A stretch of 64,000 nucleotides of DNA from Caerostris extrusa. Its lineage: Eukaryota. The notes under the pieces were generated by a model. That model ran no database searches, was not told the DNA's origin, and saw only the letters and a program-made list of their open reading frames with translations. This document shows, piece after piece, positions 51,245-52,780 of the stretch (the stretch's first letter is position 1; each line of letters begins with the position of its first letter). The stretch covers positions 2,414 to 66,413 of the forward strand of contig BPLR01000781.1 in the NCBI GenBank assembly GCA_021605095.1, given 5' to 3'. A program made the position numbers and the translations under genes.

Positions 51245-51418
51245 TGACGTCACAGCGCTAAATTTAAAATAAGAATAAAAAAATGTTTCCGTGATGTCAT
51301 GATATTGTGATTGGTTATAAAGTGTTAACTTTAAAACTGATTGGTCGAGCAATCCTGAAGCCTATTACGAAGTCCACGTTAAATCGAAATTTTTTTTTTT
51401 CTTTCTGAGTAATAAAAG
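51245..51418 (+). promoter_or_regulatory. H2B promoter elements: CRE-like palindrome, two CCAAT boxes (inverted), TATA-like boxes
   Basis: tgacgtca 51245-51252; gattgg 51309-51314 and 51339-51344; tataaag 51316-51322; aataaaag 51411-51418, ~65 nt upstream of ATG. Confidence 0.5.
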
Positions 51419-51481
51419 CGTACGTTGTAGGAGAAGGAAAATCATTCGAGTAGAAGATTTCTTACACTGATTTAAGTAATT

Positions 51482-51849
51482 ATGCCTGCTATGCCGATCG
51501 GTAAAGCTATGAAAAAAGCCGATAAGGCTCCTCGACCTGGGGACAAAAACTTAAAAGGAAAAAGAAGAGGAAGGAAAGTTTCAGTATTTACATCTACAAG
51601 GTTCTGAAGCAAGTTCATCCCGATACCGGTATTTCCAGTAAAGCTATGTCTATTATGAACAGCTTTGTGAACGATATATTCGAACGTCTTGCTGCCGAAT
51701 CCTCTCGTCTTGCTCATTACAACAAGCGTTCCACTATTACAAGCCGAGAAATACAAACAGCCGTTCGTTTGCTGTTGCCAGGAGAACTTGCGAAACATGC
51801 CGTTTCAGAAGGAACCAAAGCCGTGACCAAATACACCAGCTCCAAGTAA
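51482..51849 (+). CDS. H2B: histone H2B, with an apparent 1-nt frameshift in the N-terminal tail (about 51555-51575, within aaaaggaaaaagaagagg)
   Basis: Frame A from ATG 51482: [32 protein letters not shown]..; frame B from ~51541: ..[96 protein letters not shown] (near-identical to canonical metazoan H2B globular domain); intronless. Confidence 0.8.
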
Positions 51850-51872
51850 AATCAACCAGTACTGAATATCTG

Positions 51873-51896
51873 TGAACATTGTTACAACAATGTTCA
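51873..51896 (+). other. perfect 10-bp-stem hairpin 24 nt after H2B stop (candidate non-canonical histone 3' stem-loop)
   Basis: tgaacattgt taca acaatgttca; position typical for histone 3' SL but sequence not the canonical GGCYCTTYTNAGRGCC. Confidence 0.45.
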
Positions 51897-52780
51897 ACGA
51901 ACTCTTTTAAATTCTAATTCTAAGACTCTTGTGACTTGTCATTTTAATTCTAATGTGCCTGGTACGAACACTGACAGAACTGTGCCAAAGAGGCTTATCT
52001 TTGAACACTAGTTGCTTCAATGTGAACTTTTCCTTTTGCGACTATTAAGTAATTTTTTAATCCTTTATTTTTGCAATCTTTATTTCTATGTGACTAATTC
52101 AAACTTCCTATTTTGCGTTCTTTTTAAAATCTTAAACTTTCAATTCCTTGTAATGAGTAGTGCTCTTATTAAAATTTGAATGTCATTCTTATCTTTGCTG
52201 TTCATTTCATATTCAGTATTGTTAAAATAAAAACTTTGTTTACATTTAAGTGTCTTTTATTTAGTGTTCAATGCTATTAAATGTTTAAAGAGTTACTATG
52301 GAAACAAAACTTGCGTGGAAACGAAAGTGACATTTTTGTTGCATTGTACGATTAAATTTTTTCTGCCATTGTTAAATTATTGAAAGAATTGCTGTAAAGG
52401 AGCCTTCGCCTATTTAATAGCTCCTTATTTTAAAGTGGATTAAAAAAAATAATTTGCCTTGTGTTCCTATAGAAGGTGTGATAACGTTCCTTCAATCTCT
52501 CGTACAAATGACCCTGTCAATGTTTTGGAACTTCTATTTCCATTACAAATTGTACCTAAATGGAAATAATAATAGCTGGAATATATGTTCAAAAAATTAA
52601 ACAAATATTAAGTGACTACCTATAATGTACGTTTCTTTGAAGCGAGAGACTTGGACATAGTTAAAAATTATAAATTTTCTTAGAGTATAGATTCGAAAGT
52701 GATTTAAAATAACCCCTTTTATTAAAGTGTATTAAAAAAATAAAAATTAAAAATTAAACAAAAATTCCCTCGGTTAAAGC

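Follow-up and report, generated by a model that had tools for sequence, protein, structure and literature searches.

The 64,000-nucleotide (nt) stretch of Caerostris extrusa contig BPLR01000781.1 analysed here (the window) carries an intronless H2B gene at 51482–51849 on the forward strand, with a coding sequence (CDS) of 368 nt as delimited by translation of 51400–51900. The N-terminal tail is read in the ATG frame from 51482, which stays open for 41 codons and then runs into a stop at 51605; the histone fold lies one base back from the ATG frame and ends at its own stop, 51847–51849. As assembled, the gene lacks the uninterrupted tail-to-fold open reading frame (ORF) of a core histone H2B, in agreement with the first-pass annotation of this DNA, which had placed tail and fold in different frames. 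The fold part is identical to Drosophila H2B at 92 of 98 residues (tblastn) and matches the Pfam family Histone (PF00125) at 7.4e-22. For the frame-corrected protein, the closest full-length database matches are arachnid, mainly spider, H2B proteins. We consider it probable that the locus is an araneoid spider's copy of a solitary, intronless H2B gene that is kept outside the histone clusters, is of the polyadenylated type and does not use the hairpin behind its stop codon as a signal. The features of the locus, with the alignments on which they rest, are listed below; type A and type B denote the invariant and the fast-evolving form of the gene in other spiders.

51245–51252, forward strand: TGACGTCA, a palindrome resembling the cAMP response element (CRE)/ATF site, in the distal promoter; aligned with (A)TGACGTCAC in all type-A orb-weaver orthologues
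51292–51299, forward strand: TGATGTCA, a second CRE-like element; aligned with GTG(A/G)(C/T)GTCA(C/T) in all orb-weaver orthologues
51310–51314 and 51340–51344, forward strand: two inverted CCAAT boxes (ATTGG); (T/C)GATTGG(T/C) at both sites in nearly all orb-weaver orthologues
51369–51375, forward strand: GAAGTCC block; GAAGTCC(G/A)C in 8 of 9 aligned orb-weaver orthologues and in Larinioides type B
51411–51423, forward strand: AATAAAAGCGTAC, resembling a TATA box, some 60 nt ahead of the ATG; orb-weaver orthologues have AATAAAAGTGTAC with hardly any variation
51482–51549, forward strand: CDS of the N-terminal tail in the ATG frame, from translation and CDS alignment, with a 9-nt in-frame deletion relative to orthologues
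51542–51552, forward strand: frameshift site GACAAAAACTT (A5 run), from the CDS alignment with orthologues
51553–51849, forward strand: basic patch, histone fold, C-terminal helix and stop, in the frame one base back, from translation, Pfam and the ratio of nonsynonymous to synonymous divergence (dN/dS)
51850–52231, forward strand: 3′ untranslated region (UTR) with conserved blocks, from the alignment with 11 orthologous loci and blastn spans; blocks TTTTAAATTC, AATGTGCCTGG (51952–51962), GAACTGTGCCAAAGA (51977–51991) and TTCATTTCAT (52201–52210)
51873–51896, forward strand: perfect hairpin with a 10-base-pair (bp) stem and a 4-nt loop, TGAACATTGT-TACA-ACAATGTTCA; its sequence is unique in the window
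52226–52231, forward strand: AATAAA, the poly(A) signal, with T/GT-rich sequence behind it; at the aligned position orb-weavers have AAATAAAAACTATTGATGCT and other spiders AATAAAA(A)TTTGATGCTGC

A spider-wide lineage of solitary H2B genes

A solitary H2B orthologue is present in every sampled spider: Araneus, Larinioides, Argiope, four further orb-weaver assemblies, Parasteatoda and many Logan/JGI contigs. Two of the loci that resemble the window far beyond the CDS are those of Araneus ventricosus (P0057) and of a Logan contig (P0047). Over 51286–52034, which takes in promoter, CDS and 3′UTR, blastn aligns the window at 72–77% identity with the loci of Araneus, Larinioides, Argiope and four other orb-weavers. 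None of the spider loci compared comes from the source species itself, the top promoter-to-UTR alignments reaching about 77%. The type-A protein is strikingly uniform: one identical 124-residue sequence (P0158) is recorded for seven species of the orb-weaver superfamily (araneoids), and near-identical proteins occur in Caerostris, in Parasteatoda (XP_015913120.1, our P0160) and in many Logan/JGI contigs (P0161). Its tail reads MPPIPSGKAVKK... With a promoter and a 3′UTR orthologous to those of this lineage (P0158/P0160/P0161), the window gene belongs to it, and the earlier idea of an orphan H2B of the replication-independent type is supported by its orthology to a spider-wide solitary lineage devoid of stem-loops. 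Among the lineage-typical residues, the Ser of ESFSIYIYK is present in the window copy and the Gln of LAQYNK is replaced by His, the canonical state.

In a neighbour-joining (NJ) tree built from promoter, CDS and UTR, the window copy is sister to the Araneus/Larinioides/Argiope group and the four other orb-weaver assemblies combined, Parasteatoda falls outside all of these, and the origin of type B lies inside the Araneus+Larinioides group. Araneus and Larinioides each have two solitary H2B genes (loci L001, L006, L012 and L024), of which the type-A protein is invariant; type B, the product of a duplication within that group, has a fast-evolving tail and two kinds of change in the fold, L to M and T to S. 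The Larinioides type-B gene (L024, 3001–3375) occupies the opposite strand of what seems to be an intron of a large kinesin gene model, and in its annotated isoform P0167 the last residue is spliced away and WLMQEL added. We considered the window copy as an orthologue of Araneus/Larinioides type B, but both the tree and the marker residues rule this out. ORFs in the flanks of the orthologues have no convincing match in the window, these flanks being too short for a synteny comparison, and the kinesin gene that hosts Larinioides type B is not seen there. Third-codon-position GC content, tried as a separator of solitary from canonical copies, gave no separation.

The solitary setting is shared as well. 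By tblastn there is no H2A, H3 or H4 in the 64 kb, and the orthologue flanks contain no other called histone gene within 3 kb on each side (type-A loci and Parasteatoda; L005–L012, L023) or within 6 kb (L001, Araneus type B). Two hallmarks of a replication-dependent histone gene, the stem-loop and the cluster location, are missing from the window gene. The first-pass annotation had pointed to the lack of a divergently paired H2A; the absence is real, but it is of little use as a criterion here, since the canonical spider cluster has H2B and H2A on the same strand. Within that cluster (Larinioides sclopetarius, L004), a 5S rRNA gene (3758–3876, 110 bits) lies between H2B and H2A.

Conserved promoter and 3′ end

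The promoter elements listed above recur with few departures. Larinioides type B retains just one inverted CCAAT box, Larinioides type A has GACGTCC in place of GAAGTCC, ATTGG pairs are also found in the Logan and Parasteatoda loci, and more distant spiders have (A)AAAGTGTAC at the position of the TATA-like element. AATAAAAGCGTAC would act as a TATA box.

Conservation extends to the other end of the gene. The AATAAA, which an earlier estimate had put at about 52222, lies precisely at 52226–52231, 377 nt past the stop, and corresponds to the conserved poly(A) signal of the lineage: a block TTCATTCCAT...AATAAAA, 325–480 nt after the stop, is present in every orthologue whose contig extends that far, distant spiders included, and the final UTR block before AATAAAA reads TTCATT(C/T)CAT. 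The AATAAA would serve as the cleavage signal. The Rfam model Histone3 (RF00032) finds no stem-loop in the window at the gathering score, none in 51000–52600 at E≤10 and none in the 11 orthologous loci at E≤1. As a positive control, the same model recovers five stem-loops in the Larinioides cluster (25.8–35.6 bits): four directly follow the called genes for H2B, H2A, H3 and H4, and one falls within a different gene model; that of the clustered H2B, GGCCCTTTTAAGGGCC, lies 28 nt past the stop. The window gene therefore shows the combination that marks replication-independent variant genes, freedom from the stem-loop together with a conserved poly(A) signal.

Elsewhere in the window, GGTTCTTTTAAGAACC at 46885–46900 has the pattern of a histone stem-loop; its Histone3 score is 23.3 bits, against a gathering score of 34 (E = 8e-4 in the 1.1 kb searched). 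We rejected it as a remnant of a neighbouring histone gene: no histone ORF is near, the score is sub-threshold, and the match falls inside a minus-strand ORF that by eye resembles part of a mobile element. It is probably a chance match. Across metagenomes, the pattern TTCATTCCAT..AATAAAA..TTGATGCT gave three matches only, all attributable to chance and none with H2B. One JGI contig (L003, from 3300031128), whose sample id turned up in no paper, holds a spider H2B that has a short 5′ leader, lacks the promoter and stops shortly beyond the AATAAA. In this it looks transcript-derived, and it is the only transcript-like evidence for the lineage. The contig is chimeric: an antisense fragment of a different H2B (31–297) is fused to the message of the spider gene, and directly behind the AATAAA a palindrome created in assembly is the source of spurious microRNA matches in Rfam.

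The hairpin downstream of the stop codon

The first-pass annotation had drawn attention to a perfect 10-bp hairpin shortly past the stop, right in position and wrong in sequence. The hairpin is indeed there, with 23 nt between it and the stop, and Histone3 does not match it. However, its suggested role as a divergent 3′ end-processing element finds no support in the comparison with other spiders. The hairpin is conserved neither in 9 orb-weaver orthologues nor in 7 more distant ones, and in the first 100 nt of their UTRs no perfect stem exceeds 8 bp, the longest ones sitting elsewhere. It lies within a conserved UTR block, GAATATTCGTGCACTTTCATCGTAACCAACTTCAAGAATG, which in nine araneoid orthologues does not form it; in the orthologue alignment 51% of cells pair at the hairpin, compared with 52.8% after shuffling, and RNAalifold yields no consensus structure there. 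Nor is the hairpin exceptional in itself. At −11.2 kcal/mol (z = −1.42), its fold is equalled or bettered by 21 of 200 shuffles, and the window, at 30% GC, contains 11 distinct hairpins whose perfect stems reach 10 bp or more. By these comparisons the hairpin is best described as a lineage-specific palindrome, not a 3′ end signal. The conserved primary sequence of the block suggests that it contains some UTR element, within which the palindrome itself would have arisen in the window lineage.

We therefore regard it as very unlikely that the hairpin is a diverged histone processing signal, or some other functional 3′ end or stability element, at which transcripts end. What speaks for such a role is the perfect 10-bp stem and a start 23 nt past the stop, close to the 28 nt of the canonical spider stem-loop. 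The structure itself is quite different, with a 10-bp A/U-rich stem and a UACA loop, whereas the Larinioides cluster has the canonical 6-bp GGCCCU stem and UUUA loop. No purine-rich downstream element can be seen by eye, the sequence that comes after the hairpin being ACGAACTCTTTTAAATTC. Added to this are the lack of conservation, the presence of eleven similar hairpins in the window and a folding z-score of only −1.4.

Position and origin of the frameshift

The switch between frames is bounded by a stop in the fold frame (~51522) and a stop in the tail frame (51605). A single frame change had been proposed at 51555–51575; homology places it slightly upstream, at GACAAAAACTT (51542–51552). Two changes are apparent in the alignment with the orthologues, whose CDSs are intact at 375 nt in 18 of 18 checked, against 368 nt in the window copy. 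One is a 9-nt in-frame deletion in the tail that removes KAV. The other is 2 extra nt, with AACTTAAAAG in the window where orthologues have CGTAAGAA, although +3/−1 is equally possible; the stretch between GDK and the Ser codon of KESFS measures 32 nt in the window and 30 nt in all orthologues, and the 22 nt that follow the shift site are the same in both.

Substitutions relative to type A are concentrated in the tail (9 of 32 residues, compared with 2 of 89 in the fold; Fisher p = 9e-5). At the same time, fold dN/dS is only 0.011–0.028 against 16 orthologues, with dS of 0.9 or more, at or near saturation. Because of this low ratio, the gene must be taken to have been translated in frame for almost all its history, and the break in the frame is either very young or a consensus error. 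The alternatives offered at first, an assembly indel or a very young pseudogene, thus remain the correct pair, now narrowed by the exclusion of an old pseudogene (dN/dS 0.01–0.03). Between a very young lesion and a consensus error in the A/G-rich run the odds are about even. If real, the lesion would be no older than roughly 1–2% of neutral divergence and might be a segregating null allele; this is our own estimate and derives from only 2 fold replacements.

That the frameshift is a consensus or assembly error has, in our judgement, just under an even chance, taken jointly with its corollary that a full-length, tail-divergent H2B is still in use; the real gene would then have one more A (GAC AAA AAA CTT) or two fewer. 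This accords with the fold (dN/dS 0.01–0.03, only 2 replacements in 89 residues), with the 18 intact orthologue CDSs and with the location of the shift in an A5 run of an A/G-rich low-complexity stretch. Yet A5 is short for a homopolymer miscall, the simplest length change is +2 nt relative to orthologues where a miscall is typically 1 nt, the tail of the window copy is already evolving freely, and no independent record of the locus was found. A real frameshift, in a very young pseudogene or a segregating null allele, possibly a redundant lineage-specific duplicate in which constraint on the tail had already been lost, likewise falls a little short of evens. The 9 substitutions among 32 tail residues and the 3-residue deletion fit it well, given that type-A copies of other sampled spiders differ by 0–4 residues, and an independent duplicate in the Araneus/Larinioides family has the same freed-tail pattern. 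It does require, however, that the gene was caught within roughly the last 1–2% of neutral divergence, before any decay of the fold.

The remaining explanations carry far less weight. A pseudogene long in decay, a retrocopy or a copy displaced from the cluster that chanced to lose its stem-loop might be expected from a solitary, intronless, frameshifted gene in a region rich in mobile elements, but is extremely improbable. Promoter and whole 3′UTR are orthologous to those of intact genes in other spiders, fold dN/dS is 0.01–0.03, the fold is only 74% identical at the nucleotide level to a canonical cluster copy, and the H2B region is single-copy within the window. A processed pseudogene or retrocopy in particular is excluded by the conservation, with intact orthologues, of the promoter and of the UTR beyond the poly(A) signal. 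Least credible of all, with next to no chance of being right, is a real frameshift bypassed by a −1 ribosomal slip at C-AAA-AAC (51544–51550), even though the H2B frame would be restored exactly: reading on after AAA-AAC gives CTT AAA AGG AAA AAG, which is the H2B frame, and AAAAAC is the 3′ part of a classical slippery heptamer. Here the heptamer is imperfect, with C instead of A at position 1, the 100 nt downstream (51551–51650) fold no better than shuffles (z = +0.31) and offer no stimulatory structure, no orthologue needs recoding, and the family provides no precedent. With an imperfect X XXY YYZ heptamer and no stimulatory structure, the site was rejected as a programmed −1 frameshift site.

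Surroundings of the gene

At ~62000–63300 the window contains a C2H2 zinc-finger array with several frame changes and in-frame stops; it is probably a decaying gene, and for this reason it provides no gauge of indel error in the assembly. A database search with the zinc-finger ORF at 62.4 kb gave no near match. Mobile elements are represented, by eye, by an ORF resembling a Tc1/mariner-type transposase (5312–5929) and by ORFs resembling a retrotransposon without long terminal repeats (non-LTR; 41600–44600), comprising gag with CCHC knuckles and pieces of reverse transcriptase. A repeat of ~75–150 bp, possibly a short interspersed element, occurs at no fewer than nine sites (1435, 2641, 3707, 8435, 11867, 40786, 48890, 57764 and 58908).

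Interpretation

Taken together, these observations suggest the following picture. The gene has its own conserved promoter, with two CRE-like sites, two CCAAT boxes and the TATA-like AATAAAAGYGTAC, and a conserved 3′UTR of ~380 nt that lacks a histone stem-loop and closes with AAUAAA. Metazoan histone genes that combine a place away from the clusters, the lack of a stem-loop and a conserved poly(A) signal are polyadenylated and replication-independent (PMC5100578, PMC8857922). The absence of the stem-loop, combined with the conserved AAUAAA-ended UTR, would thus imply that the mRNA matures through ordinary cleavage and polyadenylation and bypasses the SLBP/U7 histone pathway, and this in turn would make the gene a replacement-type (replication-independent) H2B. 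The palindrome of the hairpin probably arose in the window lineage, inside a conserved UTR block. Purifying selection on the fold has been strong almost to the present. The copy as assembled is unable to make H2B: a 9-nt deletion is followed by +2 nt (or +3/−1) at GACAAAAACTT, and the ATG frame ends after 41 codons.

Several points weigh against this interpretation. At LAHYNK the window copy carries His, a position occupied by Gln in every solitary orthologue, and its tail is far more diverged than that of any type-A orthologue; it may be a lineage-specific duplicate and not the single orthologue, and the freed tail, by analogy with type B, hints at a redundant duplicate. The hairpin stands at the distance from the stop that is usual for histone stem-loops, a coincidence for which hairpin density in the window gives a chance of ~0.02 per 100 nt, and a lineage-specific role for it is still conceivable. 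The use of AAUAAA and independence of the cell cycle are predictions from gene anatomy and established knowledge. Finally, we found no independent assembly of the locus: exact-product look-ups of its 41-residue (the tail-frame ORF), 67-residue and 108-residue antisense ORFs, the last of which spans the shift site, returned none.

Overall, the window gene is an ordinary, possibly defective, member of its lineage. A bolder reading, which we put forward only tentatively and would not expect to hold in full, is that spiders carry an undescribed replacement-type H2B, a counterpart of H3.3, that repeatedly spawns duplicates with fast-diverging tails and a fixed fold, the window copy being a functional tail-divergent member and its frameshift a consensus error.

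Comparison with known histone genes

To our knowledge, no near-canonical replacement H2B class is established in animals, and none outside mammals is recognised as both near-canonical and replication-independent. In the literature that we searched, no spider H2B is described as solitary or polyadenylated, and database labels for proteins of the lineage say only 'histone H2B' or similar. The solitary spider lineage is apparently undescribed, against a background in which only a few H2B variants have been identified in animals (PMC8857922). Its existence puts the window gene in perspective: what looked unusual at the 3′ end would simply be how a solitary H2B of the polyadenylated type is normally built, and the hairpin is a false lead. 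More generally, spiders keep a near-canonical solitary H2B under extreme constraint, its regulatory DNA is conserved too, and at least one duplication of the gene has led to divergence specific to the tail. The lineage offers a natural system for studying the role of the H2B tail once it is freed from S-phase duty.

The closest relatives of the window gene are found within this lineage. Solitary type A resembles it in promoter motifs, 3′UTR blocks, poly(A) region, absence of a stem-loop, solitary and intronless organisation and the ESFSIYIYK sequence. The window copy differs from type A in length (368 versus 375 nt), in the frameshift, in nine tail substitutions and a 3-residue deletion, and in having Leu for Ile in ERIAAE and His for Gln in LAQYNK. 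The type-B duplicate (P0057 at L001; P0145/P0167 at L024) is also solitary, has the same promoter and UTR, and has changed in a similar manner, with 7–11 changes in the tail and 2 in the fold; GKAMKKA is common to the window copy and Larinioides type B. However, type B arose inside the Araneus/Larinioides family, is intact and bears the markers KVMKQ and TISSREIQ, whereas the window copy has neither and branches outside.

The canonical clustered H2B of Larinioides (L004) has the same fold and differs from type A at 8 residues over 124, but it is clustered with H2A, H3, H4 and a 5S rRNA gene, ends in the stem-loop GGCCCTTTTAAGGGCC and has a different upstream region. Replacement genes of the H3.3/H2A.Z type, as defined previously (PMC5100578, PMC8857922), share with the spider lineage a location outside clusters, the lack of a stem-loop, a poly(A) signal and a near-canonical, extremely conserved protein. 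Most of them contain introns, and experiments have demonstrated that they are deposited independently of replication, whereas the spider H2B is intronless and its timing of expression and deposition is a prediction. Mammalian H2B genes with polyadenylated mRNAs (PMC3661734, PMC5100578) likewise produce near-canonical H2B from a polyadenylated message, as we propose for the spider gene. Those genes, however, lie in clusters and have kept the stem-loop, their downstream poly(A) site being only an alternative, whereas in the spider lineage there is no stem-loop at all.

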